Assembly (NCBI GenBank): GCA_964447765.1
Contig: CAYUTO010000003.1
Span: 72,919-136,918, forward strand
Source: an uncultured Gammaproteobacteria bacterium
Lineage (GTDB): Bacteria; Patescibacteriota; Patescibacteriia; Magasanikbacterales; UBA922
DNA: 64,000 nt
Direction of reading: 5' to 3'
The notes under the pieces are model-generated. The model was given only the letters and a program-made list of their open reading frames with translations, did no database searches and was not told where the DNA came from. Positions 7,980 through 31,884 of the stretch are shown here, piece by piece. How positions within the stretch are numbered: position 1 is the stretch's first letter; each line of letters begins with the position of its first letter. The position numbers and the translations under genes were made by a program.

Positions 7980-7983
7980 TGCT

Positions 7984-10304: not shown

Positions 10305-10311
10305 TATACCT

Positions 10312-11118: not shown

Positions 11119-11148
11119 AATAGAGGCGCATTGCAATACACCTCTATT

Positions 11149-11928: not shown

Positions 11929-11950
11929 GAGTCGTGTATTGTTTTCTACT

Positions 11951-12619: not shown

Positions 12620-12771
12620 ACAAGTATTTATTACCCCACTTAATAAAGTACTCAACACTATACGATACTAGTTGATTTTTGGCAAAAATATGCTAGCATA
12701 CATCAAGAATCCATGATTGTGATACACTAATATCTCTCATTGATCCATCCTAACTATAGTGGAAAATTACT

Positions 12772-13680: not shown

Positions 13681-13692
13681 GAATCTCAAACA

Positions 13693-14166
13693 TTAGTTAT
13701 ATAGCAAGTGACCAATGTAGTACATTCCAATTCCAGCAGCCACAGACACATTGAGGCTTTCCTTCATCCCACGCATAGGAATATGTGTGACAATATCACT
13801 CTTCAGAAGATTTTTCTTATCAATCCCCTCAACTTCATTTCCTACGATTAAGGCTATTTTTGTTCCAAGCATTTTTTTGGTGAGTGTACCTAATTCTACA
13901 CTGTCCTTTGCTTTTTCCAAGGCAACGATTGTATATCCTTCTTTTTTTAAACTTGAAATAAGCCGAGCTAGGCTTTTCTTCTGCTCCCAGGGCACTGTTT
14001 TTTCAGCCCCCAGAGCTACTTTATCTATTTCAGGTCGTGGAGGTACCGGTGTGTAGCCTACGAGATAGATTTTATTAAATCCACACGCATCCGCTGTTCG
14101 GAACATTGCACCCACATTGTGACATGAGCGGATATTTGGAAGTATGAGAGCGAGTTCTGGTTTCAT
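13693..14166 (-). CDS. SpoU/TrmL-family RNA 2'-O-methyltransferase (SPOUT)
   Basis: 157 aa. LILPNIRSCHNVGAMFRTADACG ... IVGNEVEGI ... IPMRGMKESLNVSVAAGI are SPOUT motifs; size fits TrmL. Confidence 0.75.
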   Translation of the reverse strand: MKPELALILPNIRSCHNVGAMFRTADACGFNKIYLVGYTPVPPRPEIDKVALGAEKTVPWEQKKSLARLISSLKKEGYTIVALEKAKDSVELGTLTKKMLGTKIALIVGNEVEGIDKKNLLKSDIVTHIPMRGMKESLNVSVAAGIGMYYIGHLLYN

Positions 14167-14184
14167 AGTACCTAAGCATAGCGA

Positions 14185-14216
14185 AAATAAGACTGGATTT
14201 CAACCAGTCTTATTTT
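14185..14216. terminator. Hairpin terminator
   Basis: aaaataagactgg-atttcaa-ccagtcttatttt; perfect stem flanked by A/T runs. Confidence 0.55.
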
Positions 14217-14219
14217 CTA

Positions 14220-15155
14220 TTAATTTTGAGGACGTTCTTGAAGTGGGAGTAATGGACGAACCTGTTTTTGTCTCTCACCTGTAGATGTTGCCGATTTCTC
14301 TCGCTGACGTTCTAATATTTCTTCTTGTCTTATACGCTCAAGCTTACGCTCGGCAGCCGGGGTAGTACTAGCTTTTTCTTCAACATTAAGTTTGATTTCC
14401 GCTGCACGCTCTTCACGAATGGTTTGCAATTCTTCTTTTGCAGACTCATCGCCGGATTTTATCCGATCAAGAAGTTCTTTTTGTTCATCACGGAATTCTT
14501 TGACCTCTTCTTGATGCTCTTCAATTCTAGCTTTTACACTTTCTAAATGAGCACGTACTTCTTCGGGAATATTACTATTTTCAAGCGCATTCATCAGAGA
14601 TCGACTCTTCTCACTTGCTTGTGTGCGCACATTTTCTAAACGCTCAAGCTGTTCGGGAGTAAGTTTTTCTTCTAATTTTAGAAATACCTCTTCTTTGCGT
14701 TCTTTAAAGTTTAACAAATTTTTTAGCAATAGTTGCGCTCGAGCATCTGGATTGTCTATGAGCGTATCTTTTACTTTATCCGCCTGATCTTCGAGACTCG
14801 CTGCGCGCTCAAGTATCTTATTGATACGCTCTTGTACTTGTGGATCATCAGTCTTATCTGCCAATCTCTCGGCAATTTCTGTTCGCTCTTCAGCGAATTG
14901 TAATGCTTTTTCTGCTTTCTTTACTGGGTCGAATGTGGTGAGTAGCACGAATCGTTCTCTCACCCCTAGAAAAAACATTTTCCAGCCGCTCGACTCATCA
15001 GATGTATTCACTTCCCCACTGGTAGTGGGGTCAAGAGCTACATCTACTGAAACTTCGGCTGAAGTTTGTACTGCTTCAGCATTCACTACTCTAGGAACAC
15101 TTGAGAAAATGAGCCCAAGTGATAAAAATAGCGCGATAGATACTTTTTTATACAT
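14220..15155 (-). CDS. Secreted coiled-coil protein (signal peptide, E/K/R-rich)
   Basis: N-terminal signal peptide (MYKKVSIALFLSLGLIFSSVPRVVNA) followed by ~280 aa of charged heptad-like sequence. Confidence 0.5.
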   Translation of the reverse strand: MYKKVSIALFLSLGLIFSSVPRVVNAEAVQTSAEVSVDVALDPTTSGEVNTSDESSGWKMFFLGVRERFVLLTTFDPVKKAEKALQFAEERTEIAERLADKTDDPQVQERINKILERAASLEDQADKVKDTLIDNPDARAQLLLKNLLNFKERKEEVFLKLEEKLTPEQLERLENVRTQASEKSRSLMNALENSNIPEEVRAHLESVKARIEEHQEEVKEFRDEQKELLDRIKSGDESAKEELQTIREERAAEIKLNVEEKASTTPAAERKLERIRQEEILERQREKSATSTGERQKQVRPLLPLQERPQN

Positions 15156-15491
15156 ATTTTTTAAAATGTGGGTATCGAAAACAGCCCGGGTGGGCTGTTT
15201 CCACTTGTCAGCTTAATGTAAGACGAGGAACAAAGATAAATACTGCACTTGCAATCATTATCCCTGCTGCTAAATAATAATATACCAAAGAAAACTCAGA
15301 CTTAATGGCGTCTGTGGCCAAATATTTTGGTTGCATATTTTGTTTATTTGTTTTTGTATATTGTATGTTGCAACGTTATATACTATACCACAAAAAACAC
15401 GTTTTGTCAACCCCGTTTTTTCGACATTTTACTAGAAAAATTGTTTTTTTCTGTTATACTATGTTGTGCGACACAAAAAAATATTCAATTT

Positions 15492-16496
15492 ATGCAAACG
15501 CTCACCAAATACAAAACTGATTTCCTCGAACACCTCGAAATTGAAAAAAATCGAAGTGACAAGACTACCAAAAACTATGATTTTTATCTTCGTCGCTTTG
15601 TCGAATGGTTTGGGGAAGACAAAACACCAGAAGCAATTACTTTCGAAGACATTCGTCAGTATCGCCTTTGGCTCAATCGCCTGATTGATGTCCATGGAGA
15701 GCCCTTGAAGAAGAATACTCAGAACTACCATTTGATTGCGCTCCGCACTTTTCTCAAGTATCTTGCCAAACGAGATATCAAAACGTTATCGGCCGAAAAA
15801 ATCGAACTCATGAAGATGCCTGATCGTGAAGTTTCATTTCTTGATGGGAGTGATCTCAACCGTATTCTTGAAGCTCCGCTCAAACATATTAATACAAAAA
15901 AATTGGAAGCTGAAGGAAGTAAGATTGTAGCTGGACCAACACTCTTGATTGCGTACCGAGACAAATCTATCCTTGAGTTGCTTTTTTCTACTGGTCTTCG
16001 TGTGTCAGAATTAGTCAAACTCAAAAAAGATGATGTGAATTTGAAACGAGATGAATTTACGGTTGTTGGTAAAGGACGAAAAGCCAGGGTCGTCTTCCTC
16101 TCAGAACAAGCAAAATACTTTCTCAAAAAATATTTGGATCTACGAAATGATATTCACCCCTACCTCTTTGTTTCGCACGACAAACGAACCAAAAAACATG
16201 AGATAGCAAAAAATGCTTCAAAAGATACTCCTGATGAACCCCTAACCCCTCGTTCCGTACAACGCCTGGTCCAAAAACATGCCCGTGAAGCCGGTATTAC
16301 CAAAATTGTGACTCCACATACCTTACGACACTCGTATGCCACTGATTTGCTCCAAAATGGGGCGGATATTCGCAGTGTACAGTCCATGCTTGGGCACGCA
16401 TCAATCACTACTACTCAAATCTATACCCATATTACTGACAAAGAATTATTGAATATTCATAAAAAATTTCATGGGAAGAAAAGAAATGATGATTGA
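15492..16496 (+). CDS. Tyrosine site-specific recombinase (XerC/XerD-like integrase)
   Basis: C-terminal catalytic box LRHSYATDLLQNGADIRSVQSMLGHASITTTQIYTHI (R..HxxR..Y). Start at ATG 15492. Confidence 0.85.
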   Translation: MQTLTKYKTDFLEHLEIEKNRSDKTTKNYDFYLRRFVEWFGEDKTPEAITFEDIRQYRLWLNRLIDVHGEPLKKNTQNYHLIALRTFLKYLAKRDIKTLSAEKIELMKMPDREVSFLDGSDLNRILEAPLKHINTKKLEAEGSKIVAGPTLLIAYRDKSILELLFSTGLRVSELVKLKKDDVNLKRDEFTVVGKGRKARVVFLSEQAKYFLKKYLDLRNDIHPYLFVSHDKRTKKHEIAKNASKDTPDEPLTPRSVQRLVQKHAREAGITKIVTPHTLRHSYATDLLQNGADIRSVQSMLGHASITTTQIYTHITDKELLNIHKKFHGKKRNDD

Positions 16497-17796: not shown

Positions 17797-18918
17797 ATGA
17801 TCCACACACATAAAAAAATACTTATTGTTTCCCTTTCGGCAGGGTCAGGTCATATCCAGACTGCTAAAGCGCTTGAAAAAGCTGCTAAACTTGATTTTCC
17901 CGAACTTGAGTGTAGGCACATCGACATTGCTGACTATATTACCCCCTTGCTCAAAAAAACTACGGTTGAAGGATATGATTTTCTCGTATCCCATCTTCCC
18001 AAAGTCTGGTCTGGATTATTCCGAATCTCTGATAATAAGGTATTTATAAAAACATATCATGCTCTTACTGATTACCTAAAAATGCTTAGTTCATTTGAAT
18101 TTCTTCAGGAAGTCGAAAATTTTGCACCCGACCACATTATCACCACTCATTTTTTACCTTCGGAAATTTTGGCACACGCCATGAAAAAACGCAGCAAAGC
18201 TGTTCCTATTACTCAAATAGTTACCGACTACGGTCTACACCCTATGATCGTGATTAATGGAGTAACAAATTATGTAGTGAGCACACCCGAGATGAAAGAG
18301 GAATTAATTCACACGCACAAAATCCCCTCTACCCGTATTCATGAATTTGGTATTCCGATTGACCCTGCTTTTTATCACACACCATCACTCGAAGAAGCAC
18401 GAGTGAAACTGAAACTACCCGAAGACAAACCTTTGGTTTTATTACTTTCTGGTGGAAGTGGAATGATTGAACTTGCCGATACTATCGAAGAATTATTTGC
18501 ACACTTACAGCTACCTACCGCTATAGTTGCAGTAACGGGGAAAAATAAAAAAATGCTTACTCGTATTTCGAAGCTCAGTCCACCAGCACACATTACCTAC
18601 ATCCCACTCGGCTGGACTGATGATATTTCTTCGCTTATGAAATTAGCTTCAGTTGTCGTAAGCAAACCAGGAGGACTCACGACTACCGAATGCACTGTGT
18701 CTCAGGTTCCTCTTATTGCCATTCATCCGATTCCTGGTCAGGAAGAATTTAATGTAGAATATTTGAAAAAAAATCATCTCGGTGACCACGCTCCAACTAC
18801 CAGAGACGTATTACCGCTTGTAACCCACTACCTCTCACAAAAGACTACAAAAAAAGACTACACACGGGTGCAGTCTGGTACACAATTACTAGAATTTATT
18901 TCACAATTGAAAACTTAG
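17797..18918 (+). CDS. GT28-family glycosyltransferase (MGDG synthase/MurG-like)
   Basis: N-terminal KILIVSLSAGSGHIQTAKAL (MGDG synthase/UgtP-like G-loop). C-terminal PGGLTTTE ... glycosyltransferase family 28 C-terminal pattern. Confidence 0.7.
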   Translation: MIHTHKKILIVSLSAGSGHIQTAKALEKAAKLDFPELECRHIDIADYITPLLKKTTVEGYDFLVSHLPKVWSGLFRISDNKVFIKTYHALTDYLKMLSSFEFLQEVENFAPDHIITTHFLPSEILAHAMKKRSKAVPITQIVTDYGLHPMIVINGVTNYVVSTPEMKEELIHTHKIPSTRIHEFGIPIDPAFYHTPSLEEARVKLKLPEDKPLVLLLSGGSGMIELADTIEELFAHLQLPTAIVAVTGKNKKMLTRISKLSPPAHITYIPLGWTDDISSLMKLASVVVSKPGGLTTTECTVSQVPLIAIHPIPGQEEFNVEYLKKNHLGDHAPTTRDVLPLVTHYLSQKTTKKDYTRVQSGTQLLEFISQLKT

Positions 18919-19388
18919 AATTCATCAGGATATGAATCATTATATCCAGGTGTTATCGGATTATTGATACTCCCATACAAACCCATATATATAAAGTAGG
19001 TGATACTATAAGCACCCAGTATTACCGCGGTTCCTGTTACACAATACATTAAAATTTTCTTTCCCGTCTCGATTTTTTCTTCATTACCACTGGAGGTCAT
19101 GATGACAAATCCTGCATACAAGGCCAAAGCAACAGCAATGATGCCCATTACACCCAAAAATGTTTTGATCAGTTTTGCCACGATTATTCGAGGGTCACTG
19201 TGTGTTAATTTGGCCCCCTTATCACCACCAAATGCATTGAGTTGTGCTTCCATTTCTGAACCTTGAAATTGCCCTGGTGTTTGAGTTGATGGGCTCGTAG
19301 CAAACACTATACTAGGCATACTTGAAAAAAGTATTCCGAGTAAGAATGTAGCACCTACGATCAATTTTTTTATTTTTTTCATATTCAA
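18915..19388 (-). CDS. T4SS-pilin-like (VirB2/TrbC-type) small secreted membrane protein, paralog 1 of 11
   Basis: Signal peptide, then two hydrophobic helices around a polar turn: IIAVALALYAGFVIMTSSGNEEKIETGKKILMYCVTGTAVILGAYSIT. Confidence 0.7.
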   Translation of the reverse strand: MNMKKIKKLIVGATFLLGILFSSMPSIVFATSPSTQTPGQFQGSEMEAQLNAFGGDKGAKLTHSDPRIIVAKLIKTFLGVMGIIAVALALYAGFVIMTSSGNEEKIETGKKILMYCVTGTAVILGAYSITYFIYMGLYGSINNPITPGYNDSYPDEF

Positions 19389-19397
19389 GCTTCAAAT

Positions 19398-19811
19398 TTA
19401 TTGTTGACCTATCGTTTCTGCAAGAATTCGGCTTGTTACAAAACTGGTGATGCTATATGCAGATAAAATAATAATAAGCCCAACAACTGCATAACCGATG
19501 ATTTTTTTTGCTTTTGATAGATTTTCTTCGTTACCCGCAGCTGTAAAAATCAGAAAGCCGGCATAGACCACCAACACCACAAACATAATTCCTAACAAGG
19601 ACAATACCAACTGGATTCCTTTGGCAACGGTAATACGAATATCTTGCGCTTCGGTACCATATCCTGCAGCTTGAGATCCAGCATTGAGCTGCCCCATGAT
19701 GTCTGGACCAGTAGTTGTTGCTAGAGCTCCTGCTGGCGAAAAAACAAATACTCCAAACATTAGGAATGAAGTAAAAAGTACACGCACAGCTAGTGCTTTC
19801 ATTTTTTGCAT
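19398..19811 (-). CDS. T4SS-pilin-like protein, paralog 2
   Basis: LSLLGIMFVVLVVYAGFLIFTAAGNEENLSKAKKIIGYAVVGLIIILSAYSIT; same architecture. Confidence 0.7.
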   Translation of the reverse strand: MQKMKALAVRVLFTSFLMFGVFVFSPAGALATTTGPDIMGQLNAGSQAAGYGTEAQDIRITVAKGIQLVLSLLGIMFVVLVVYAGFLIFTAAGNEENLSKAKKIIGYAVVGLIIILSAYSITSFVTSRILAETIGQQ

Positions 19812-19815
19812 ATTT

Positions 19816-20238
19816 TTATGGTGTGGCGGCAGGAGTCGGAGTAGTTGGAGTACTTACTGATCCTTCCAATACTCGTGGAACTACAAATCTGGTAATACTA
19901 TAAGCTGCCATGAGAATGATGAGTCCTATTACTGCTCGACCTATAATATTTTTCGCCTTAGTAACTTGCTCGTCTTCTCCTAGTGCCATCATCCAAAGGT
20001 AGCCAGCGTATACGATGAGTACGGTGAATAGTACTCCTAATACTGAAAATAATACGGTGATCAGTCTTCCAATATTTTCTGCTAATGTTGTCTCTGTTGC
20101 TTTTACAAACCCTGCTTGCGTTCCTGCTTTATGCACATCATCAATACCTAGATTTTGAGTATAGACAGTAGTACTTAATAGACCAGAAAATAGAAACGCG
20201 GCTAACAAAAAAATTTTAACAGTTTGTAGTTTTTTCAT
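19816..20238 (-). CDS. T4SS-pilin-like protein, paralog 3 (C-terminal T/P-rich tail)
   Basis: Start at MKKLQTVK. VLFTVLIVYAGYLWMMALGEDEQVTKAKNIIGRAVIGLIILMAAYSIT ... TPTTPTPAATP. Confidence 0.65.
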   Translation of the reverse strand: MKKLQTVKIFLLAAFLFSGLLSTTVYTQNLGIDDVHKAGTQAGFVKATETTLAENIGRLITVLFSVLGVLFTVLIVYAGYLWMMALGEDEQVTKAKNIIGRAVIGLIILMAAYSITRFVVPRVLEGSVSTPTTPTPAATP

Positions 20239-20239
20239 A

Positions 20240-20635
20240 TTATTGACCACTAAATCGTGACGTAATAAACACGGTGATTGCATATGATGATACCACAATA
20301 AACAGCCCCATGATTGATGATTTGATAATTTCTTTTGCTTTATTCACTTGCTCGTCCTCTCCTCCTGCAGTCATCCAGAGATACCCTGCGTAGACAGTAA
20401 GCACTAGGAATATAATACCTACCAGACTCAACACTGTTTTTATCACATTTCCTACCACGACAGTTAGGTCAGTAGGCACATTTCCCCCAATACCTTTTTG
20501 TAAATTCTTCAGATTATCGTCTGCATTGCCCAAATTTTGATTTGTGCCCATTACTCGACTTGGTAATGCCATAATACTGAGAGATATCAGAACTCCTCGT
20601 ATCCAGTATTTTTTTACGCTATTAATAATTTTCAT
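20240..20635 (-). CDS. T4SS-pilin-like protein, paralog 4
   Basis: LSLVGIIFLVLTVYAGYLWMTAGGEDEQVNKAKEIIKSSIMGLFIVVSSYAIT. Confidence 0.7.
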   Translation of the reverse strand: MKIINSVKKYWIRGVLISLSIMALPSRVMGTNQNLGNADDNLKNLQKGIGGNVPTDLTVVVGNVIKTVLSLVGIIFLVLTVYAGYLWMTAGGEDEQVNKAKEIIKSSIMGLFIVVSSYAITVFITSRFSGQ

Positions 20636-20650
20636 AACTAGTTCAAATTA

Positions 20651-21061
20651 CTATCCAAAATTGATTGCATTGGTTATAAATGCTGCAATAGCATATGCAC
20701 TCACCGTGATTATCAATCCAATGATTGCAGCAATTAATGTCTGGCGAGATTTGGCGATTTTTTCTTCTTCTCCTCGAGCGAGGAACCAGGTGATTCCCGC
20801 ATAGAGTGTGAGGACAAAGAATAAAAGACCTAATATTCCAAATAGCCACTGCGCGACTGATCCAATATATGTCGCTATTTCGTTTTTTGGTAACCCGGTA
20901 GGCCCTACCGCTGATTCCAGTGCTGCCCCCGCATCTTCGATGGTTTTTTTGGCGTGTACCTTATTAAAAAACAACAATGAAGCTGCCACAGCAAGAGGAA
21001 TACTCAGAAACAAGGTTTTAATTTTTGAATAGACCCACATGTTTAAATAATTTATTTTCAT
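20651..21061 (-). CDS. T4SS-pilin-like protein, paralog 5
   Basis: LFGILGLLFFVLTLYAGITWFLARGEEEKIAKSRQTLIAAIIGLIITVSAYAIA. Confidence 0.7.
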   Translation of the reverse strand: MKINYLNMWVYSKIKTLFLSIPLAVAASLLFFNKVHAKKTIEDAGAALESAVGPTGLPKNEIATYIGSVAQWLFGILGLLFFVLTLYAGITWFLARGEEEKIAKSRQTLIAAIIGLIITVSAYAIAAFITNAINFG

Positions 21062-21218
21062 TAGTTTATTCTTAATCCCCCTATAGAAGGACTAAACACT
21101 TAATTGACCTTATTTAATAACGTGGTTTTTTACATTAAACAGAGGTTACTACGTTACGCTCATCTTTTATTTTATTAACGTAAATAGCTTCTCCCATACT
21201 GCTCATCCGCGAGCTCGA

Positions 21219-21767
21219 TTACGTATCTACACACAAACTTGCTTCATTCGGATCACTACTGTCACACTCCCAACCTGACTCTACTGTACAAGTTGCACTA
21301 CACCCATCTCCTGGATTTGTATTTAAATCGTCACATTCTTCAGCACCTTCTCTTTTTCCGTTTCCACATACCGTTCCTGTAGGTGTTGTCTGAGTAGTAG
21401 TGCCTCCACTATTTGATCCAAGCTTAAACACAAAGTTAGTAAGGGCGTATGCTCCGATAACAATGATAATTCCGATTGTCGCAGCAATAATTGTATTTAG
21501 GGCTTTTTCTGTCGTCTCTGAACTACCTCTCGCCGTCATCCAGAGAATACCCCCGTATAGCACGAGCACAAAGAATAGAACCGAAATCATCGAAAGCAGC
21601 GTTCCAATGATATTACCCGCAATAGTTGGAACACTATCTCCGTAGGTATCAAGCTTTGCTGCACTTGCTGTATCTTTCAGCCCAAAATCATTAGCAAGAA
21701 CGGTAGTGCCGAAAGCGAAAATTGAGAATGCTGCGATAAGACCGATAAGTAAATACACTTTTTTCAT
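21219..21767 (-). CDS. T4SS-pilin-like protein, paralog 6, with C-terminal Myxococcus-type cysteine-rich repeat
   Basis: Start at MKKVYLL. Pilin core LLSMISVLFFVLVLYGGILWMTARGSSETTEKALNTIIAATIGIIIVIGAYAL. Tail CGNGKREGAEECDDLNTNPGDGCSATCTVESGWEC matches the CxxGxxExxEECDDGNxxxGDGCSxxC repeat pattern. Confidence 0.65.
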   Translation of the reverse strand: MKKVYLLIGLIAAFSIFAFGTTVLANDFGLKDTASAAKLDTYGDSVPTIAGNIIGTLLSMISVLFFVLVLYGGILWMTARGSSETTEKALNTIIAATIGIIIVIGAYALTNFVFKLGSNSGGTTTQTTPTGTVCGNGKREGAEECDDLNTNPGDGCSATCTVESGWECDSSDPNEASLCVDT

Positions 21768-21786
21768 AAGAAAAAATTGATTAATT

Positions 21787-22242
21787 TCATGGAGAGTAGC
21801 CCGATGTTCCTGATGAGTATTGATTTCCACATGACGTGCCAATAGTCTCACAAAGAGAACGCAATACAAAACTCATAATAGAGTACGATGCCATAATAAT
21901 CACAAGTCCCATGACCGCAGCGCTTAGTATTTTTTTTGCACTGCCCACCTTCTCATCATTACCTCCTGCGGTCATCCAGGTGAACCCAGCGTAGAGAACA
22001 ATAATCACGGCAATGATCCCTAATAGACTCAAGGCAAAATTGATAATACGCACCGTAATAATACGAGGATCTTCCGCACTCAACCCTGAGTACTGTGTCC
22101 CTGCACAATCAAGCCCTAGAATGTCACCTGCACCTGTCTGTCCATCACAACCTTGCGCCAAGGATTTCACTGGAAAAAAGGCTATAATTAGAGCAAAACA
22201 AATAACTGAGAAAAGAGTTGCGAGAACTAATTTTTTATTCAT
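21787..22242 (-). CDS. T4SS-pilin-like protein, paralog 7
   Basis: Start at MNKKLV; the longer ORF extension upstream is rejected. ALSLLGIIAVIIVLYAGFTWMTAGGNDEKVGSAKKILSAAVMGLVIIMASYSIM; Cys pairs lie N- and C-terminal of the core. Confidence 0.65.
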   Translation of the reverse strand: MNKKLVLATLFSVICFALIIAFFPVKSLAQGCDGQTGAGDILGLDCAGTQYSGLSAEDPRIITVRIINFALSLLGIIAVIIVLYAGFTWMTAGGNDEKVGSAKKILSAAVMGLVIIMASYSIMSFVLRSLCETIGTSCGNQYSSGTSGYSP

Positions 22243-22343
22243 ACAGAATAGGTGAGAGTCAAAGCTTTCCTGGCCAGTAACGTGCCTATGACCAGTGAAA
22301 GCTCTGACACCCGTATGGGTGCCTGAGTCTGACAACTGTATTT

Positions 22344-22760
22344 TTACGCTTCTTCGACAGCTGTCTGAATAGAATTGATAAAGAAATTTGCAATTGCGTA
22401 TGCAGATAGAATGATCGCGAGACCAATCACTGCAGCAATGATAATTTTCTTTGCAGCTTCTACACTTTCGTCGTTTCCGCCGGCGGTCATCCACTTGAAA
22501 CCACCCCAGAGGATCAATATAACTGCGATTAAACCTAGGAACGTCAATGCGAGGTTGATAATATTTACTACTACCGCGCGCGCATCAGTTTCTTCAGTAC
22601 TGATGTTTAAACCAGTCGTTGGCTCAATTCCAAATGGATCATCAGAACCATTTCCTGTTGCCAAACTTACCTTTGGTGACAACGTAAACACCGTTACCAA
22701 AGCTACAATACCAAGCATGATATTTCTATGCTTTAGTAATTTTGCTTGTATGTTTTTCAT
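22344..22760 (-). CDS. T4SS-pilin-like protein, paralog 8
   Basis: ALTFLGLIAVILILWGGFKWMTAGGNDESVEAAKKIIIAAVIGLAIILSAYAIA. Confidence 0.7.
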   Translation of the reverse strand: MKNIQAKLLKHRNIMLGIVALVTVFTLSPKVSLATGNGSDDPFGIEPTTGLNISTEETDARAVVVNIINLALTFLGLIAVILILWGGFKWMTAGGNDESVEAAKKIIIAAVIGLAIILSAYAIANFFINSIQTAVEEA

Positions 22761-22837
22761 ACTCCCTCACCCCCCTTCAATTTTTTACATGTTTTATGCA
22801 TAATATTCACTAGTGTGATATGTATATACGTAGATTA

Positions 22838-23245
22838 TTAGTTTGGACTAGCTTGTAGAGTATTCAAAATCAACGTAATTATAGCATAGCTACTGAAAAT
22901 CACAATAATTCCAATCCCAGCCCAGAGCATAGCTTGTAAACCCTTCTGAATCCTTTCAGAATTCCCTGCTGAAGTGAGCCAAAGCACACCTCCATATACG
23001 AATACTACGAAGGTGATTGAACCGATGATTCCCATGATAGCCCCAATGCTATTCCCAATAATCGTTTTAATATCTGTTGTTGCAAGTGGATTGGTAAGTG
23101 AGACACAATCTTGTCCTTCACGACAACCGATCGTTGGAGTACTCGAGGCCAAGGCTAATTGAAAATTACTAACACTCACCAGAGTGCTTAGTATAATTAC
23201 CATAATTCCGACTAACTTTGTCCTATTTTTTTTCATATCAACCAT
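22838..23245 (-). CDS. T4SS-pilin-like protein, paralog 9
   Basis: IMGIIGSITFVVFVYGGVLWLTSAGNSERIQKGLQAMLWAGIGIIVIFSSYAII. Confidence 0.7.
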   Translation of the reverse strand: MVDMKKNRTKLVGIMVIILSTLVSVSNFQLALASSTPTIGCREGQDCVSLTNPLATTDIKTIIGNSIGAIMGIIGSITFVVFVYGGVLWLTSAGNSERIQKGLQAMLWAGIGIIVIFSSYAIITLILNTLQASPN

Positions 23246-23257
23246 ACTGGTGCCAAA

Positions 23258-24349
23258 TTAGGAAGTAATCCCGATAGCTTTTACAATAAAACTTACTAAT
23301 ACATACGCTGAAAACGCGATAATCATACCTACCGTTGCTGCGACCAATATTTGTTTTCCTTGTCCTACTTTTTCTGAATTTCCAAATGATAGAACCATAG
23401 TGAGTCCACCATAGACAAAGAACGCAAATCCAAGACCAGCTATAATACCAAATAACCAAGTTGCTACGTTTACACCCAATTGCACCAAATCTTCTACGTT
23501 GCGACATGACCCAGTAAATGCGCAGGAAGGAAGTGGACCTTGATAACCATCTGGTGCCTTATATCGTTCAGCAATATACTGGTCAATTGCTTTTGACACC
23601 TCCACTTCAGTCGTTTTCTTTACACATGTATTATTTTCTCCTGTCGTACAATGTCGTGCAGCCGAACAAACGTCTGAGGGTAATTGAGTACAATCGATAC
23701 TTGAGTCATCTTTTGCAAGACATTTAGCCCCAGCTACTTGCCAAAAACATTGAGAGTTCGCTTCACACGTTGACTTGTCTTTCCCATTATTTTGAGCACA
23801 TATTCCAACTGGATTTTCTAGCTGCTGCTCGAGAGAAGCCGTTGCTACATAATACACCTGAAAATCCATATTTAACCCCGCATCTTCTCCTTCAAAATAG
23901 TAACGAGTAAACACACCTGAAGAAGGTACGTATGGTGTAGCATGATAGGTTATACTTGCCGGCTGATTGTCGTCTTGGGTGGTATTCCAACTCAAAGTCG
24001 AATTTCCATTATCAGATTTTTCTTCCCTTACATATTCTCCTCGTTGCAATTTATCTGCATTCTGTTTGATAAAACGACTGCTGTCACGGAGATTTACCCA
24101 CTCCACAACTGAAGTATTATTTGCCACCTCGACACAAAAAATTTCAAATGCAGTCCCTGGGACATTGGGGTCTGCCAACACACTGTCATTATTCCCAATA
24201 GAAAAAATAAGTAATTTATGATTTTCTCGTGCAAATGATTGACACTTTCCCCCTGTAAATTCTGACGCACTTACTTGTTGCGCGCTAAAAAGACACACTA
24301 CGCTCAACAAAGTTAACCAGAATATTTTGTGAATTTTTTCTAAGCGCAT
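23258..24349 (-). CDS. Large Cys-rich secreted protein with C-terminal T4SS-pilin-like domain, paralog 10
   Basis: Signal peptide, ~280 aa ectodomain with more than 14 Cys, then LFGIIAGLGFAFFVYGGLTMVLSFGNSEKVGQGKQILVAATVGMIIAFSAYVLV. Confidence 0.65.
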   Translation of the reverse strand: MRLEKIHKIFWLTLLSVVCLFSAQQVSASEFTGGKCQSFARENHKLLIFSIGNNDSVLADPNVPGTAFEIFCVEVANNTSVVEWVNLRDSSRFIKQNADKLQRGEYVREEKSDNGNSTLSWNTTQDDNQPASITYHATPYVPSSGVFTRYYFEGEDAGLNMDFQVYYVATASLEQQLENPVGICAQNNGKDKSTCEANSQCFWQVAGAKCLAKDDSSIDCTQLPSDVCSAARHCTTGENNTCVKKTTEVEVSKAIDQYIAERYKAPDGYQGPLPSCAFTGSCRNVEDLVQLGVNVATWLFGIIAGLGFAFFVYGGLTMVLSFGNSEKVGQGKQILVAATVGMIIAFSAYVLVSFIVKAIGITS

Positions 24350-24351
24350 AC

Positions 24352-25737
24352 TTAATACGTTTGTTGAATTTTTGCTGCACCATTGAGAATCACCGTCTTA
24401 TCTTTCTTGAGTGTCTCCTGTTCAGTATTTCCTGGTCTCAAAAATTCGGTAATTAAATCTTTCATAGTTGAAACTGCAATATCACTTTCCCGGCCCCGAT
24501 ACCAATTATCAGCGAATAGCGCTTGTGTTGCAAAAGGTTCCATTGTTTCATCTGTTTGCTGCTCTGCAATCTGTTCTCGGTACGGACTTGGTCTAAAGGT
24601 TGCAGTGGTATACGTTTTTACTTTTTCTTTTGAAGTGATAAATCTCACAAAATCCCAGGCCTCATTCTGGTATTTTGATTTCTTTACTACTGATTCGAGC
24701 CAATAGTTTGCAACATTGGAAGGGGAACTTGGATTCAGCTGTGGCACAGTTGTAATCTGGATATCCAGTTGCGGTGCTCGTTCTTTTATCCGAGGATAAT
24801 CATAGGCAAATCCAAGAAAAAACGCGCTTTTCCCTCGTACAAATTCATCAAATGCATTTTGTTGTTTTTCATTCCAGCTATATCGATCAGCGGTAGCGCG
24901 CGCAAATCCCGTATAGAAATCTAGTGCACGAAGCATCGGATGCGATCGATCTTGTGCACGATCAACACCCGCAGCAAAAGTAACCGACTGCTGACTTACT
25001 GGAATAACACCACTCTGCATCATAAAGAGAGACACAATATCAAAAAAATTATCAATATTATTTGAGGTACCAAGTGCTACTCCTGACTGAGTAATATCAA
25101 GAGTTGAATTGAATTTGGTAGTTTTTTGTATTGCCTCCACAAATTCTTCCCAAGTAGCAGGAGCTTCAGCAATTCCTGCTCGATCAAGGAGTGTTTGATT
25201 GTAAAATAATGCAAGAGAGTCAAACGCAATCGGGAGCCCATAAATTTGTCCATCGATTACCACGTCCTTGTGAACCGACTGTACGTACTCATTTCGAATA
25301 TCCCGTTCACGAGGCAATGGCACGGTATCGATTACCACAGCCATTTCTTTGGTATATTTATTTTTCTCTACCAAACGAGGTACTTGCACACTCGCAGGTG
25401 CTGCAGATAGCCTATTCTGATTTTTACGTAGCCAGCGAACGTGCATTGAAACAATGTCAGGTCCCACATCATCTGCAAGTGCATTGGTGAACAATGTATC
25501 AAATTCTTCGTAACGAACCTGACGAATGTTGATCGTTACTTGAGGTCGCATCGCTTTGTATTCTGCGGCATATTTCTTCAGCTCATCCACATCATTAAAT
25601 ACAGTCCAATAGTTCAAAGTAACACCTCTCACCGATGTTTGTTCTTCGGCAGTCAAACCTTTGCAACCAAAACCAGAAAAAAGCAACATGGTGCTGAGCA
25701 AAGAAAGAGATAGTATGGATTTTGTGATTTTTCTCAT
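24352..25737 (-). CDS. Extracellular solute-binding protein (ABC-type, family 1 sugar-binding-like), probable lipoprotein
   Basis: Lipobox-like LLFSGFGC after a signal sequence. Overall periplasmic-binding-protein pattern. No permease or ATPase genes adjacent. Confidence 0.65.
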   Translation of the reverse strand: MRKITKSILSLSLLSTMLLFSGFGCKGLTAEEQTSVRGVTLNYWTVFNDVDELKKYAAEYKAMRPQVTINIRQVRYEEFDTLFTNALADDVGPDIVSMHVRWLRKNQNRLSAAPASVQVPRLVEKNKYTKEMAVVIDTVPLPRERDIRNEYVQSVHKDVVIDGQIYGLPIAFDSLALFYNQTLLDRAGIAEAPATWEEFVEAIQKTTKFNSTLDITQSGVALGTSNNIDNFFDIVSLFMMQSGVIPVSQQSVTFAAGVDRAQDRSHPMLRALDFYTGFARATADRYSWNEKQQNAFDEFVRGKSAFFLGFAYDYPRIKERAPQLDIQITTVPQLNPSSPSNVANYWLESVVKKSKYQNEAWDFVRFITSKEKVKTYTTATFRPSPYREQIAEQQTDETMEPFATQALFADNWYRGRESDIAVSTMKDLITEFLRPGNTEQETLKKDKTVILNGAAKIQQTY

Positions 25738-25752
25738 AAAATTTAGAGGAGA

Positions 25753-25822
25753 AATTAAAGATTAAAGATTGAATAAACGGAATATTAGTCTTTAATCTTT
25801 AATTTTTAATTTTTATTCTTTA
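25753..25822. repeat. Intergenic palindromic repeat, family R2 (aagattaaagatt/aatctttaatctt words)
   Basis: aaattaaagattaaagattg ... agtctttaatctttaatttttaatttttattcttt. Confidence 0.65.
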
Positions 25823-25823
25823 A

Positions 25824-26519
25824 CTACCTAAATATCTCAAACACGAAATCCACTAGTGCGTAGCTTGCAAAAATTAACACAACTCCTAGACCTGCCCATA
25901 ATATTGTCTCACGAGCTTTCTGTGTGCGTTCTGAATTTCCTCGTGCGGTCATCCAAGTAATTCCTCCATACAACATCATTACTAATGCAACAGTTCCAAT
26001 TACTCCCATAACTCCTCGAATGATAATTCCAATCAGATCCTCCACATTATCGACTTTGAGTTTATTGAGTTCGTCTGCATATTGCGTAAATGATGCAGAT
26101 GGAGATGTTTCACGAGCCACATCTTCAAGACATTTTTCAATACTAGGTTTTTCCGTACACGGCGCACAATTCCCTGGTGTCACAATACTTCCCCCTGCTG
26201 CGCTGTCTCCATACTTGATGCATTGGCTCCCGCACTGACAGGCCCCACTCGGATAGGTAATACCACCTGCTTGGCAGGCTGCTTTTGTTTCAAAAACTCG
26301 GTCTATTTGAGGATTGCAAAAAGTTTCCAACCACTCAGTAGTAATTGTTCCTACTCCTTGTATTCCATTTAAAGTAGGAACAGCATCTCCTACTCCATAA
26401 CATACCCCACTTATTTTACAGACCTGAACTAACGCTAATGCTTTATCTGAAAAAAATAACGTACTCATCAATATTACCAGCACCACAATCATTTTTGAAC
26501 TCCTTTGAAATAAACGCAT
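25824..26519 (-). CDS. Cys-rich secreted protein with C-terminal T4SS-pilin-like domain, paralog 11
   Basis: Signal peptide, ~130 aa Cys-rich region (CKISGVCYG ... CQCGSQC ... CAPCTEKPSIEKC), then IGTVALVMMLYGGITWMTARGNSERTQKARETILWAGLGVVLIFASYALV. Confidence 0.65.
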   Translation of the reverse strand: MRLFQRSSKMIVVLVILMSTLFFSDKALALVQVCKISGVCYGVGDAVPTLNGIQGVGTITTEWLETFCNPQIDRVFETKAACQAGGITYPSGACQCGSQCIKYGDSAAGGSIVTPGNCAPCTEKPSIEKCLEDVARETSPSASFTQYADELNKLKVDNVEDLIGIIIRGVMGVIGTVALVMMLYGGITWMTARGNSERTQKARETILWAGLGVVLIFASYALVDFVFEIFR

Positions 26520-26537
26520 ACTTTTTTTAATTCCTGA

Positions 26538-27374
26538 CTATAGTAAACCCTCTTTCTTGGCAAAATGTATTGCAGTTTTCAGTAATGCTATTTTATTTCC
26601 AGTATCAAAATATTCTCCCTCATATTCATACGCAAAAAATTTCTTTTTCTTTGCCAGAGTATTTGCTGCGTCAGAAAGCCAAATTTCTCCATCTTTTCCT
26701 TCTACTTGAGAATCAAGAATTGCCCAAATATCATTGGTAAAAATATAACGCATTCCCCCAACGATCAAACCTAATGGAGAAACTGCTTCAGGCGTAGGTT
26801 TTTCACGAAATTCATTTACCCGGTAAACACCCTTTCCTAATGGTTTTCCATATACATTACCGTACTTTCTCATCTCTTCAGTATTATCCATTTTTTGAAC
26901 ACCAATTACTGAAGCTTTCTTTTTATAAAAAATATCTAGCAGTTGCTGTATGACAGGAGTTTTAGCATCAATAATACTATCACCATCTGAGAAGGCGAAT
27001 GGTTCATCTCCTACAAACTCTTTTGCACACAATAATGCATGCCCATTCCCTCGCGGCTCAGCTTGTCTGGTATAAAAAAATCGTACTTTTTCACTTAAAT
27101 CTATGAGAGATTGTATGCGATCGAGCTTTCCCTGACTTTCCAAATATGCCTCAAAATCACGATCACGATCAAAATGATCTTCTATCGCACGCTTTTGAGA
27201 GCTCGTAACAAAAATGATTTCAGTAATTCCACTTGCTACCATTTCTTCTACAATATATTGAAGTACTGGTTTATCAAGTACTGGTAACATTTCTTTTGGC
27301 ATGGCTTTGGTAGCTGGAAGAAACCGCGTACCCAAACCTGCGACAGTGATTACACCTTTACGAACTTTTTTCAT
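26538..27374 (-). CDS. galU: UTP-glucose-1-phosphate uridylyltransferase
   Basis: KGVITVAGLGTRFLPATKAMPKEMLPVLDKPVLQYIVEE N-terminus; diagnostic for GalU. Confidence 0.85.
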   Translation of the reverse strand: MKKVRKGVITVAGLGTRFLPATKAMPKEMLPVLDKPVLQYIVEEMVASGITEIIFVTSSQKRAIEDHFDRDRDFEAYLESQGKLDRIQSLIDLSEKVRFFYTRQAEPRGNGHALLCAKEFVGDEPFAFSDGDSIIDAKTPVIQQLLDIFYKKKASVIGVQKMDNTEEMRKYGNVYGKPLGKGVYRVNEFREKPTPEAVSPLGLIVGGMRYIFTNDIWAILDSQVEGKDGEIWLSDAANTLAKKKKFFAYEYEGEYFDTGNKIALLKTAIHFAKKEGLL

Positions 27375-27505
27375 ACTTTCTTTTTACAATAAGATGGTGA
27401 GTAGTATACCACAATATTCAAAATACATGGAACACGATACACGACGAATACAGATACAAGTGAATTTGAATTTATTTGGTATAGTGTTCCATGTATTTTG
27501 TATTT

Positions 27506-28888
27506 TTATTTCACCTCTTCCCAACTAATAAGTTCATACGTAGAACCCACTGGAAAGCCAGGTGGTGGATAATATTTCAAATTACCATCGTACACATGGT
27601 TGGTGTAATAGTACCCTGATACTACTTGCCCCCCTGTATTAATATATTTCCAACCCCCACCAGCATATGAAATTTGAGACCCAAAAAAGGTAAGCGAATT
27701 TTTGAGAGCACCTGCATGCTCATTCGGATTATAGTATGGGGTAAAAATTTTTCCATATTGTGTCAGCGCAGCTGCATTAATCTCCAGATTAGTTGGTGCT
27801 TCATACGGCACAATAATATCACCCTGAGCAATGATACCGATCACATCATCGCTTGATTTTTGTTTTTGCAATAAATTATTCGAAATAAACACTTCTTTCT
27901 GATTACTTGGTACAGGGAAATTACCTACACCGATAGTTATTCTCCCGTCTACAGTTCCTTGCAACCATGTATTATCTTCAATAAACATTACCCCGTTTGC
28001 CGGAAGCGTATACGTACCTATTGTAGTTTTGGTACCAATATCATAGCAATACGTGGTCCCATTCCAATACCACCCCGACCAACTTGATCTCCAACTTCCT
28101 TCGCCATAATAACAATCTCTGGTATTTACCCGGTACACGGTATATTGGGTATTATTAAATATAATTTGGTATCCTTCTGCCCCAGAAGAAGCCAAATATT
28201 TTCCGCCATTCTGAGCAGCAGTACGAATAGCTGAGAGATCAGCAGATACTGAACCAAAATCAGCCGCAGGAACAGGAAATTCCCAATAATAGGTAGGTCC
28301 ACCAGTCCCCCAGATTCCAGGCCTTGTAGTGCCTTGGTAATTATAGGTAGACTTTGCACTCCTGACCCATGAGTCAGTTGTACCATCAAATTTGATTCCG
28401 CCATTCGACATAATCTCTCCATGCACCTCGGTCGTAGCACTAAATGACATATCAACGTTTTGTATAAAGGCACTATCTGTAAACGAAGGGAAGCCTAATC
28501 GCACCTTTAGAGCCCGGTTTGCATTTGGAGAAGAAACCACCGTTCCCGTAGACGCAACGGCGATGACTGAAGAGTTTGGTAGTGGGGTTGAAATATTAAT
28601 TGCATAACTTCCAACAACATCATTAAACTTATCTTTTACCGTATGAACATACGGGCCAGGTTGTCCTGTGCCGTCAGTAAAATCTGTTGGATTATGCGCT
28701 AGATGCCAACGATAATAATTGATACCTGCCTCAGCAATATGAAACGTCACATCTCGACGATAATATTCCAGTGAAATTCTATGTTCAAATAGAGCATAGC
28801 TCAAAATACCCAACACCATAATCACAAAAGCAATCGAACCAAAAACCATGACGATGAGAAGTGTATTGCCGGCGTATTTTTTTATCAT
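27506..28888 (-). CDS. N-terminally anchored extracellular protein (possible pilus tip/PilX-like component), W/Y/G/T-rich
   Basis: Single N-terminal TM (LLIVMVFGSIAFVIMVLGILSYALF), then a ~430 aa aromatic/Gly-rich domain. Last gene of the minus-strand pilin operon. Confidence 0.45.
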   Translation of the reverse strand: MIKKYAGNTLLIVMVFGSIAFVIMVLGILSYALFEHRISLEYYRRDVTFHIAEAGINYYRWHLAHNPTDFTDGTGQPGPYVHTVKDKFNDVVGSYAINISTPLPNSSVIAVASTGTVVSSPNANRALKVRLGFPSFTDSAFIQNVDMSFSATTEVHGEIMSNGGIKFDGTTDSWVRSAKSTYNYQGTTRPGIWGTGGPTYYWEFPVPAADFGSVSADLSAIRTAAQNGGKYLASSGAEGYQIIFNNTQYTVYRVNTRDCYYGEGSWRSSWSGWYWNGTTYCYDIGTKTTIGTYTLPANGVMFIEDNTWLQGTVDGRITIGVGNFPVPSNQKEVFISNNLLQKQKSSDDVIGIIAQGDIIVPYEAPTNLEINAAALTQYGKIFTPYYNPNEHAGALKNSLTFFGSQISYAGGGWKYINTGGQVVSGYYYTNHVYDGNLKYYPPPGFPVGSTYELISWEEVK

Positions 28889-28897
28889 AGGAGCGTT

Positions 28898-29012
28898 TAG
28901 TCGAAAGTCGAAAAGTCTGTAAAGTTATAAAGTCGAGAGGTGGAATGAAAAGCGTTTTCCATGACTTTCACCCTGCCGACAGGCAGGACTTTATAGACTT
29001 TTTTGACTTCGT
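28898..29012. repeat. Intergenic palindromic repeat, family R1
   Basis: agtcgaaagtcgaaaagtctgtaaagttataaagtcgag ... gactttatagacttttttgacttcgtgactc, with a central ccctgccgacaggcagg hairpin. Confidence 0.7.
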
Positions 29013-29019
29013 GACTCTA

Positions 29020-29643
29020 TTAATTCGTTTTCAAATTTCTGATATGAGTAAGTGATTCGACCCTCAAGGGCACTGGACTTTTAGTCACATCCTTTTCGAT
29101 TTCAATAATAATTTTTATCATTCGGATATTGGTAAGAGTAATCGGGAGAGTCATCGCAGCTTGTGACCCCGTATATGATTCTGTAAAATACTGAAATGTT
29201 GGTGTGCCTCTACTTGCGTTTTGCACATAACTTGCAATAGTAGTGATTTGCTCCTGACCTGTATAACTCAGGGGATTTCCACTTGGTTTCAATATTCCTC
29301 TCCTCAAATCAGTACCTGAAAGCCAATAACGCACCCGCTCACGTAAACTATCTCCATCAATATTTGCATACACCGTGAGAGATGAAGTGGTAGCCTGTGC
29401 AACTGGATACGAACCAATACTCGATTGTTCGGCAGTTCTAATCGTATTGACGATTTCAGAAATTACACGACGAGCGTCTTTTTGACCAAATAATTGATCA
29501 TTGAGTATGCGCTGATTGCGAAAACTCAATATGATAAATGATGTAGCTCCCAACATTACAATCATAGTGATTCCTAATACCACTGATACTTCAATCAAGC
29601 TCATGCCCCGAGTATACTCACTTTTTTTTGTAAAAACTTTCAT
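29020..29643 (-). CDS. Prepilin-type N-terminal cleavage/methylation domain protein (pseudopilin/minor pilin)
   Basis: Class III signal RG|MSLIEVSVVLGI at the N-terminus. Confidence 0.7.
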   Translation of the reverse strand: MKVFTKKSEYTRGMSLIEVSVVLGITMIVMLGATSFIILSFRNQRILNDQLFGQKDARRVISEIVNTIRTAEQSSIGSYPVAQATTSSLTVYANIDGDSLRERVRYWLSGTDLRRGILKPSGNPLSYTGQEQITTIASYVQNASRGTPTFQYFTESYTGSQAAMTLPITLTNIRMIKIIIEIEKDVTKSPVPLRVESLTHIRNLKTN

Positions 29644-31442: not shown

Positions 31443-31884
31443 TTATTATTCTTTCGACAATGCGTACAACCTCTTCCTTTGTTTTTACCGGATGAGAAGG
31501 ATTTTTTTCCTCTTTCATAAGCGCTTCCACCAGATCATCCTTCATTTCTAATAATTCTTGCTTATGTTCAGTAATTTTTTGTTTTAAAGCGGTTATTACT
31601 TTTCTATCTTGTACCACGGACGTTGGATCCTCTTGTGTACTTAGTTGTAATTGTGTTTTCAACGCGGCAATCGCTGCGACTACGTGCTGAATATGTACTA
31701 CCAAATTTTGCACCTGCTTAGTGGTATTTTTTACTTCTTTTATTAAATATTCAGCTCGTTCACGTGTAGCTGCTGCCTTTAATTCTTCACTCACTTCTCC
31801 TTCTTTTTCTTCTCTACGTTCTTTATTTTTTTCTCTTTCGAGATGATGATTTTTTTCTACAGTCTCCATATTTTTTATTTTCAC
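31423..31884 (-). CDS. Coiled-coil charged protein (hypothetical), first gene of the minus-strand pilin operon
   Basis: 153 aa, E/K-rich; overlaps the downstream pilin gene by 20 nt. Confidence 0.4.
   Translation of the reverse strand: MKIKNMETVEKNHHLEREKNKERREEKEGEVSEELKAAATRERAEYLIKEVKNTTKQVQNLVVHIQHVVAAIAALKTQLQLSTQEDPTSVVQDRKVITALKQKITEHKQELLEMKDDLVEALMKEEKNPSHPVKTKEEVVRIVERIISESSVL

Follow-up and report, generated by a model that had tools for sequence, protein, structure and literature searches.

Eleven divergent VirB2-like pilin genes and an interposed solute-binding lipoprotein gene on a Magasanikbacteria chromosome

The stretch of DNA considered here, termed the window, comprises 64,000 nucleotides of contig CAYUTO010000003.1 (assembly GCA_964447765.1, positions 72,919 to 136,918 of the forward strand), and it harbors between positions 18915 and 26519 an array of eleven divergent minus-strand genes, whose products resemble the VirB2-type pilins of type IV secretion systems (T4SS). 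In the original prediction, which was made from the letters of the window, the genes were described as eleven consecutive copies; their count, strand and shared core were borne out, while the copies are not strictly consecutive, because a gene for a solute-binding protein (SBP) at 24352-25737 splits the array between the tenth (pil10) and the eleventh (pil11) copies. The genes of the array and its two flanking neighbors are given below with window coordinates, strand, product length in amino acids (aa) and profile scores.

18915..19388, minus strand: pil1, VirB2-like pilin paralog of 157 aa with a C-terminal extension, the last gene of the array (PF18895, 29.3 bits)
19398..19811, minus strand: pil2, VirB2-like pilin paralog of 137 aa with 1:1 orthologs (PF18895, 33.1 bits)
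19816..20238, minus strand: pil3, VirB2-like pilin paralog of 140 aa from the likely start MKKLQ, with a T/P-rich C-terminal tail (PF18895, 38.4 bits)
20240..20635, minus strand: pil4, VirB2-like pilin paralog of 131 aa (PF18895, 37.8 bits)
20651..21061, minus strand: pil5, VirB2-like pilin paralog of 136 aa (PF18895, 40.8 bits)
21219..21767, minus strand: pil6, VirB2-like pilin paralog of 182 aa from the likely start MKKVY (PF18895, 28.7 bits)
21787..22242, minus strand: pil7, VirB2-like pilin paralog of 151 aa from the likely start MNKKL (PF18895, 28.0 bits)
22344..22760, minus strand: pil8, VirB2-like pilin paralog of 138 aa (PF18895, 42.1 bits; TrbC, 23.8 bits)
22838..23245, minus strand: pil9, VirB2-like pilin paralog of 135 aa (PF18895, 40.1 bits)
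23258..24349, minus strand: pil10, decorated pilin of 363 aa (PF18895, 34.0 bits at residues 290-355)
24352..25737, minus strand: orphan solute-binding lipoprotein of 461 aa, SBP_bac_1/SBP_bac_8 type (PF13416, 86.5 bits; PF01547, 77.2 bits)
25824..26519, minus strand: pil11, decorated pilin of 231 aa, upstream of the SBP gene (PF18895, 36.3 bits; PF04956, 30.4 bits)
26538..27374, minus strand: GalU-like UTP-glucose-1-phosphate uridylyltransferase (PF00483, 93.1 bits; TIGR01099, 282.7 bits, below the cut-off of 326.8)
17797..18918, plus strand: diglucosyl-diacylglycerol-synthase-like glycosyltransferase (PF06925 MGDG_synth, 88.8 bits; NF010135, 144.5 bits, below the cut-off)

A Pfam scan revealed that all eleven array proteins exceed the gathering cut-off of the family PF18895 (T4SS_pilin), with 28.0-42.1 bits against 26.6, and pil11 additionally passes PF04956 (TrbC), with 30.4 bits against a cut-off of 27.9. 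By these matches, the T4SS-pilin identity that had been proposed was supported with the profile search suggested at the time, and the array genes are assigned to PF18895, a family related to VirB2/TrbC. The PF04956 score of pil8 stays below the cut-off, at 23.8 bits, and no match to PF04956 at E <= 0.01 was obtained for the other nine array proteins; among the homologs scanned, 40 of 40 matched PF18895 and 24 of 40 matched TrbC at E <= 0.01. A profile built from the eleven proteins was also searched against all stop-to-stop open reading frames (ORFs) of 40 aa or more in the six frames of the window, where it recovered exactly those eleven, with E values from 5e-49 to 3e-35, and no twelfth array copy, the best further match having E = 0.22. 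Because of this gap, the strength of the matches lies far beyond chance and hidden extra copies are absent from the window.

Each of the eleven proteins begins with a hydrophobic N-terminal signal sequence, at the end of which an AxA-like site is present in most cases; behind it, two hydrophobic helices, delineated as hydropathy segments, flank the turn W-M-T-A-G-G-N/E-E-E...K-A-K-K. Identity between paralogs averages 36% in the core (range 23-52%) and about 26% over the full length (range 17-41%), in agreement with the earlier description of highly diverged copies sharing a signal peptide and a two-helix core. The differing terminal decorations that had been remarked upon were likewise recognized: an N-terminal ectodomain of about 260 aa in pil10, a Cys-rich N-terminal region of about 130 aa in pil11, a T-rich linker with a Cys-rich C-terminal module in pil6 (DUF4215 at 25.0 bits, sub-threshold against a cut-off of 27), and S/T/P-rich tails in pil1, pil3 and pil6.

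The longest-ORF calls were found to be too long for pil3, pil6 and pil7, whose longest ORFs extend to 20298, 21869 and 22494 and whose likely starts lie at 20238, 21767 and 22242, the start of pil3 having been trimmed by the position of its signal peptide. With these trimmed starts the apparent gene overlaps vanish, and the intergenic gaps calculated from the coordinates amount to 1-19 bp at eight junctions and 77-157 bp at four. The packing appears operon-like, and the tight co-directional spacing suggests co-transcription. None of the eleven copies is truncated or silent, each possessing its own start codon and signal peptide. A scan for promoter and terminator consensus sequences in 18500-27600 gave counts no higher than in shuffled sequence, and operon boundaries were not drawn from it. 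The antisense ORFs within the array (e.g., 22375-22803 on the plus strand) are without support and were rejected as spurious.

The fold of the array proteins was addressed by AlphaFold2, which predicted for pil8 a confident two-helix hairpin composed of residues 60-92, a four-residue turn and residues 97-137, with predicted local distance difference test (pLDDT) values of 86-96, and for pil10 (mean pLDDT 82.4) the same type of hairpin at the C-terminus, behind a beta-rich and Cys-rich ectodomain. The helical hairpin anticipated for the monomer was thereby found in both models. Solved pilins were not encountered among the PDB matches, either by sequence, with the family profile and the pil11 core, or by fold search, a result that is uninformative for a bare two-helix hairpin. 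An hhalign comparison with VirB2 of A. tumefaciens yielded a weak alignment in the same register and was taken as a lead only. From the N- to the C-terminus, pil10 comprises a signal peptide, a domain rich in beta structure (about residues 29-170), a segment rich in Cys (about 180-245) and the hairpin (285-359). Its ectodomain, for which no significant structural match was obtained in the PDB, may represent an orphan surface domain. Ten cysteines are invariant in this ectodomain (residues about 29-245) among its homologs, and eleven over the whole protein; these homologs amount to 33 database proteins and are limited to Magasanikbacteria-like genomes. In addition, pil11 matches the NCBIfam model NF045849, which describes the Mbov_0395-family pilin-like conjugal transfer protein of integrative and conjugative elements (ICEs) of Mycoplasma, with 41.0 bits at a cut-off of 40, while pil8 attains 30.9 bits. 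The pil11 match indicates that VirB2-like hairpins exist in monoderm conjugation systems, which bears on whether the Patescibacteria co-opted pilins from diderm systems.

The evolution of the eleven copies was traced through a scan of species-representative genomes, which provided 28 related loci chosen through a pilin. In seven of these (L003-L008 and L010), the layout of one copy, the SBP gene and ten further copies is the same as in the window; the array of L009 begins alike, and its contig ends after six copies. Best-hit analysis established a 1:1 positional orthology in the same order across L003-L010, partial in L009, with ortholog identities of 41-99%, and the positional ortholog always outscored the next-best paralog, which is 27-58% identical. 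Even in L015 with 14 copies and L018 with 11 copies, the gene order is largely preserved. The positional orthologs of pil1 in L003-L008 and L010 are 54-92% identical, pil8 is the copy best conserved among distant arrays, and pil10 is the fastest-evolving member, being 41-59% identical to its orthologs versus 71-94% for the neighboring SBP.

Against the closest relative, L005, the ratio of nonsynonymous to synonymous substitution rates (dN/dS, Nei-Gojobori) is 0.04-0.16 for pil1-5 and pil7, a level close to that of the housekeeping genes on either side, and 0.20-0.31 for pil6, pil8, pil10 and pil11. When the hairpin cores of all eleven genes were pooled, they proved to be 94% identical to those of L005, with dN 0.033 and dN/dS 0.05, whereas the pooled N-terminal tails gave dN 0.29 and dN/dS 0.26 and the pooled C-terminal tails dN 0.21 and dN/dS 0.29; the cores of close orthologs are 90-94% identical. 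The contrast between core and tail holds against four other genomes, tail dN being 5-9 times core dN. The overall tail dN/dS of 0.26-0.30 remains below 1, although dS approaches saturation in the pairs of greater distance and tail segments that could not be aligned were left out, so that positive selection at individual sites is possible. Gene-conversion tracts between paralogs were not found, the longest DNA repeat between paralogs measuring 41 nt, at 63-71% identity.

The eleven copies are therefore a fixed, anciently diverged set and not interchangeable variants. Given the 1:1 orthology, the core dN/dS of 0.05, the fast tails and the absence of shared tracts, the alignments argue that each array position has its own fixed core under strong purifying selection, while the parts predicted to be exposed vary. 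The sole exception to vertical descent was observed in pil8, where a tract at window positions 22292-22771 is 90-100% identical to positions 8561-8983 of L003, with flanks of 63-82%, and where dS is 0.15 versus 1.0-2.8 in the neighboring genes, which indicates that one pilin cassette, in a tract the size of a gene, was recently exchanged as an allele between Magasanikbacteria lineages.

The interposed SBP gene turned out to be a recurrent companion of such arrays. Homologs of the SBP with 31-46% identity are situated directly upstream of arrays in distant relatives labelled Parcubacteria, Komeilibacteria and Paceibacteria, where GalU usually lies upstream of the SBP gene, and in the relatives the pilin genes come directly after it. 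The link was also examined in reverse, by scanning metagenome contigs with an alignment of ten SBP homologs, so that loci were chosen through the SBP only. Where 700 bp or more follow the SBP gene, 65 of 66 loci contain a pilin ORF starting -132 to +600 bp from the SBP stop, and in the 38 SBP-selected loci with at least 7 kb downstream the array size is 1-13, with a mode of 7. A lipobox-like G-x-G/A-C was detected in all SBPs examined (...GFGC in the window), and the window SBP is strongly constrained, with dN/dS of 0.03-0.06. Among the NCBIfam models it comes closest to those of carbohydrate-binding SBPs, with every score far under the respective cut-off, and neither permease nor ATPase of an ABC transporter (ABC_tran and permease families) was found among the scanned window ORFs. 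The association concerns the window SBP and the loci L011, L013-L016, L018, L022, L023 and L033-L112. From these profile-based surveys, an orphan carbohydrate-type SBP lipoprotein appears to be an almost obligate leader of T4SS-unlinked VirB2-like arrays across many Patescibacteria.

At the SBP-selected loci, no VirB4 was found within 8-10 kb. The large ORFs beside the arrays of relatives were considered as VirB4 candidates and rejected, as they encode DUF2079, beta-propeller, PKD, SMC, ComM-like, FtsH, AddA, FtsK and DnaX proteins; those with a Walker A motif near SBP-selected arrays are SMC, ComM-like, FtsH and AddA. Among 108 related loci in which large ORFs were tested, the only T4SS ATPase near any array is a VirD4-like coupling protein (T4SS-DNA_transf, TrwB_AAD_bind) at L025 4633-7104, located 2.4 kb upstream of a three-gene pilin array. 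Several arrays surpass the published size range of 2-11 genes, namely L015 with 14 pilin genes (5379-15030), L041 with 12+1 and L043 with 11+2. On contigs labelled Peribacteria/Gracilibacteria, matches to the pilin profile fall inside ORFs of 1146-1169 aa (L028 989-4495, L029 8320-11820 and L030 2446-5883), which may be fusions carrying a VirB2-like anchor; in L028 and L029 the giant ORFs are followed by proteins with multiple PKD domains.

Genes for envelope glycans are frequent neighbors of the arrays. The GalU-like gene of the window is co-directional with pil11 and lies 18 bp upstream of it, and GalU is found upstream of the SBP gene in L003-L006, L008-L011, L013, L015, L016, L018 and L022 as well as in about 35 of 80 metagenome loci. 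The diglucosyl-diacylglycerol-synthase-like gene, which is convergent with the 3' end of the array and possibly associated with it, occurs at the same position in L003-L008, L010, L015, L018, L039, L041, L042, L047 and L050. Moreover, genes for Wzx and Wzy_C (O-antigen-ligase family) lie upstream of the arrays of L011 (436-3170) and L016 (3981-6727), and a DUF2079 membrane protein is encoded downstream of those of L014 (6979-9054) and L016 (11955-13847). In view of the glycan genes and the S/T/P-rich tails, glycosylation of the pilins or a fibre containing glycolipid is possible.

The window itself is ordinary chromosome of a Patescibacterium, an ultra-small member of the candidate phyla radiation, with a guanine-plus-cytosine (GC) content of about 0.40, and it carries genes for IleRS, PolA, trigger factor, SSB with S6 and S18, and rpmH-rnpA beside dnaA; the nearest genome records of pil8 are metagenome-assembled genomes of Candidatus Magasanikbacteria, with 92-99% identity. 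Three tandem DnaA boxes, one perfect and two with one mismatch, are located at 62147-62175, between rpmH-rnpA and dnaA (60884-63643), and this cluster likely marks oriC. As judged from these boxes and from the GC skew, which declines steadily along the window, the array is separated by 36-43 kb from the likely origin and runs in the direction of replication, a position that agrees with the reported origin-proximity of Patescibacterial T4SS genes. A mobile-element origin of the array was rejected, the GC content around it being uniform (0.38-0.41) and the synteny being conserved in eight genomes; an integrase-family gene nearby (15327-16496) has conserved homologs at the same position, which counts against such an origin as well.

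By Pfam search, no VirB4, VirD4, VirB6 or PrgI family was detected in the scanned window ORFs or in about 5 kb past each edge, and no VirB10 family among the scanned window ORFs, as the original prediction had stated for VirB4, VirB6, VirB10 and VirD4 in the window. The source contig measures 176.6 kb; the stretches past the window edges, which were obtained from short Logan contigs reached via DnaA and M17 peptidase, contain dnaN and PBP1A beyond the right edge and RuvA and GyrA beyond the left. The type IV pilus locus that had been placed next to the array was likewise found; it includes minor-pilin-like genes (27506-31884), PilB (33559-35319), PilC (35324-36448) and PilM (36458-37564). The minor-pilin-like genes are co-directional with GalU and the pilin array, and among their products are one of 600 aa, in which an N-methylation motif is combined with a CarboxypepD_reg/prealbumin-like domain, and one of 460 aa that lacks a family match.

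It was fair to say that the function of such arrays is not established, while the arrays themselves have already been described in the literature. The first description of such arrays dates from 2025, when Quinonero-Coronel et al. (PMC12102498) applied PF18895 and PF04956 to 3,035 genomes of Patescibacteria and reported 441 VirB2 arrays of 2-11 genes, which are tandem or split by one non-pilin gene, have a mean identity of 25% and a maximum of 54%, and are most abundant in Microgenomatia and Saccharimonadia. In the same study, 1135 of 1948 assemblies had pilin genes close to virB4, those Magasanikbacteria assemblies that appear in Table S1 are VirB4-positive, and adaptation to different host strains was suggested for the arrays. 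Wang et al. 2023 (PMC10633639) described a predicted pilin series within the essential T4SS cluster of Southlakia epibionticum, in which SEML1_0014-0019 are six PF18895 proteins beside T4SS core genes, each scored essential; since all six were so scored, redundancy among arrayed pilins is argued against. In the single species tested, epibiotic growth requires the Patescibacterial T4SS, whose function was called "completely unknown" (PMC11665869); reviews treat a Patescibacterial pilus as only a possibility, none having been seen.

This kind of array is thus already published, and the present locus is a member at the published size maximum of 11. In common with the reported arrays (PMC12102498, PMC10633639), it is composed of PF18895 genes in tandem on one strand with about 25% identity and one interposed non-pilin gene, and it is chromosomal and origin-proximal with Sec-type signal peptides. 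Unlike the array of Southlakia, it is not beside virB4 or T4SS core genes and is led by an SBP lipoprotein and GalU, and unlike the published peak in Microgenomatia and Saccharimonadia it occurs in the ABY1/Magasanikbacteria. Because the 2025 array paper (PMC12102498) makes no mention of solute-binding proteins, galU or glycosyltransferases, and the Southlakia array is without an SBP leader, the SBP-led, T4SS-unlinked arrays look like a distinct configuration of the known array kind.

Comparison with known systems places these features in context. The virB2 paralog families of Bartonella and Anaplasma phagocytophilum, which have been interpreted as antigenic variation or host-range breadth (PMC12102498), likewise comprise several tandem divergent VirB2 paralogs in a host-dependent organism; here, in contrast, copy number, order and cores are fixed, purifying selection prevails and gene-conversion tracts are absent. 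The NF045849 protein of Mycoplasma ICEs resembles the array proteins in its 80-residue hairpin model and in belonging to a monoderm conjugation system, but in the ICE it is a single gene and serves DNA transfer. With the diderm VirB2, TrbC and TraA proteins (PF04956), the array proteins share a signal peptide and, behind it, a pair of hydrophobic helices separated by a short polar turn. Diderm conjugative pilins are encoded by one gene per system, beside virB3 and virB4, and have no large ectodomain fusions, and the diderm conjugative pilus is a homopolymer with bound phospholipid. Unlike in those systems, the host here is monoderm. The minor pilins of type IV pili and type II secretion systems form a fixed row of diverged, non-redundant small subunits, which prime or tip a fibre of one major subunit; the analogy to these pilus and pseudopilus sets lies in set organisation only, as fold, signal peptide and assembly machinery are unrelated.

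With a probability of roughly 0.55, the locus is regarded as a chromosomal VirB2-like pilin array, whose fixed, non-redundant set of subunits would be assembled by a T4SS encoded elsewhere. By analogy with VirB2-family pilins, each protein would, after cleavage of its signal peptide, reside in the membrane as a hairpin whose termini are both extracellular and whose conserved G-G-N/E-E...K-A-K-K turn faces the cytoplasm. A putative T4SS of the VirB4 type, with its genes elsewhere in the genome, would next pull the subunits out of the membrane and polymerise them into a filament or conduit outside the cell, where the bacterium touches its host. The lumen of this structure would be lined by the conserved turn, with the variable tails of both termini pointing outward. 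Because the set is fixed and anciently diverged and its cores are individually constrained, the eleven copies are presumed to be co-expressed and non-redundant, and they would form either a heteromeric fibre or a fibre of one or a few major subunits with specialised minor, tip or adhesin-bearing subunits, for which pil6, pil10 and pil11 are the candidates. The 5-9 times faster tails and ectodomains, together with occasional allele swaps between lineages, would fit a matching to host surfaces. The carbohydrate-type SBP lipoprotein at the head of the array would be a dedicated partner, with adhesion, reception, chaperoning of subunits or capture of a substrate as its possible roles.

The main rival, which is possible and clearly the less probable of the two, dispenses with a T4SS and supposes an SBP-associated membrane or surface module, in which the hairpins would serve as a channel or as anchors for ectodomains and would act with the SBP, and perhaps with the GalU and glycolipid-synthase proteins, in the capture of host sugars or in envelope building. 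It accords with the near-obligate linkage of SBP and pilin genes (65 of 66 SBP-selected loci), with the lack of a VirB4-like ORF within 8 kb at these loci, where the nearby Walker-A ORFs are of the four kinds named above, and with the recurrence of envelope-glycan genes (GalU, diglucosyl-diacylglycerol-synthase-like, Wzx, Wzy_C and DUF2079) beside the arrays; moreover, the T4SS-linked array of Southlakia has no SBP leader, so the two layouts may differ in function, and according to the reviews a pilus has never been observed in Patescibacteria. However, the hairpin is related to TrbC/VirB2 and to the conjugal transfer protein of Mycoplasma ICEs, PF18895 proteins are located within the essential T4SS cluster of Southlakia, and in the relative L025 the array and a VirD4-like gene are 2.4 kb apart. 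The distance from virB4 says little, since about 40% of Patescibacterial pilin genes are away from virB4 even in VirB4-positive genomes. Furthermore, we know of no SBP-dependent transporter built from two-transmembrane hairpins, which also counts against such a module.

Much less likely is the variable-pool interpretation given in the original prediction. In such a pool, which would be comparable to the virB2 paralog families of Bartonella and Anaplasma, the cell would express a single paralog or a small number of them at any time, or recombine them, and would thus vary its surface for evasion of defence or switching of host range. The paralogs are indeed highly divergent, their tails and ectodomains evolve fastest, pil10 is just 41-59% identical to its orthologs, pil8 underwent a gene-sized allele exchange between lineages, and adaptation to different host strains has been suggested for published arrays (PMC12102498). 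Nevertheless, this interpretation was weakened by the strict 1:1 positional orthology with an unchanged copy number of 11 in L003-L008 and L010 (L009 being limited by its contig), by the core dN/dS of about 0.05 per paralog with tails that also stay below 1, by the lack of DNA tracts shared between paralogs, by the intactness of all copies, whose tight co-directional spacing suggests co-transcription, and by the individual essentiality of the arrayed pilins in Southlakia.

That the array proteins serve the neighboring type IV pilus as accessory subunits, with PilB, PilC and PilM as their assembly machinery, is highly improbable and was rejected: although the array adjoins and is co-directional with 27506-31884, an adjacency kept in L003-L006 and L008-L010, its proteins have the hairpin and not the type IV pilin fold, carry Sec-type signal peptides without a class III motif (none of the eleven matches the N-methylation family PF07963, which is found only in the neighboring 207-aa and 600-aa proteins), belong to a family sited in the T4SS cluster of Southlakia, and are no longer encoded beside the pilus locus in distant relatives, GalU and the SBP gene being preceded there by Wzx/Wzy, SMC or ComM genes.

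A bolder proposition, which is tentative and considerably less probable than a pilin set assembled by a distant T4SS, holds that the SBP-led arrays might constitute a distinct, widespread surface module of Patescibacteria that is uncoupled from the T4SS core genes, in which a dedicated SBP lipoprotein of the carbohydrate type and a fixed set of up to 13-14 non-redundant VirB2-like hairpins would build a heteromeric filament or conduit recognising or tapping the host surface, often flanked by genes for GalU and a glycolipid synthase. If true, a VirB2-type fibre of several subunits would be described for the first time, as would the pairing of an SBP with such a fibre.

This locus adds no new kind of element to the Patescibacterial T4SS and pilin arrays. 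Its fixed, individually constrained set points to co-assembly or division of labour among the subunits and away from antigenic variation, while the concentration of variation in the predicted exposed tails and ectodomains makes these parts candidate determinants of host specificity. In the SBP lipoprotein, a concrete partner protein is named for the T4SS-unlinked arrays, and the fixed-set result together with the near-obligate SBP leader makes the question of array function in these host-dependent bacteria more tractable.

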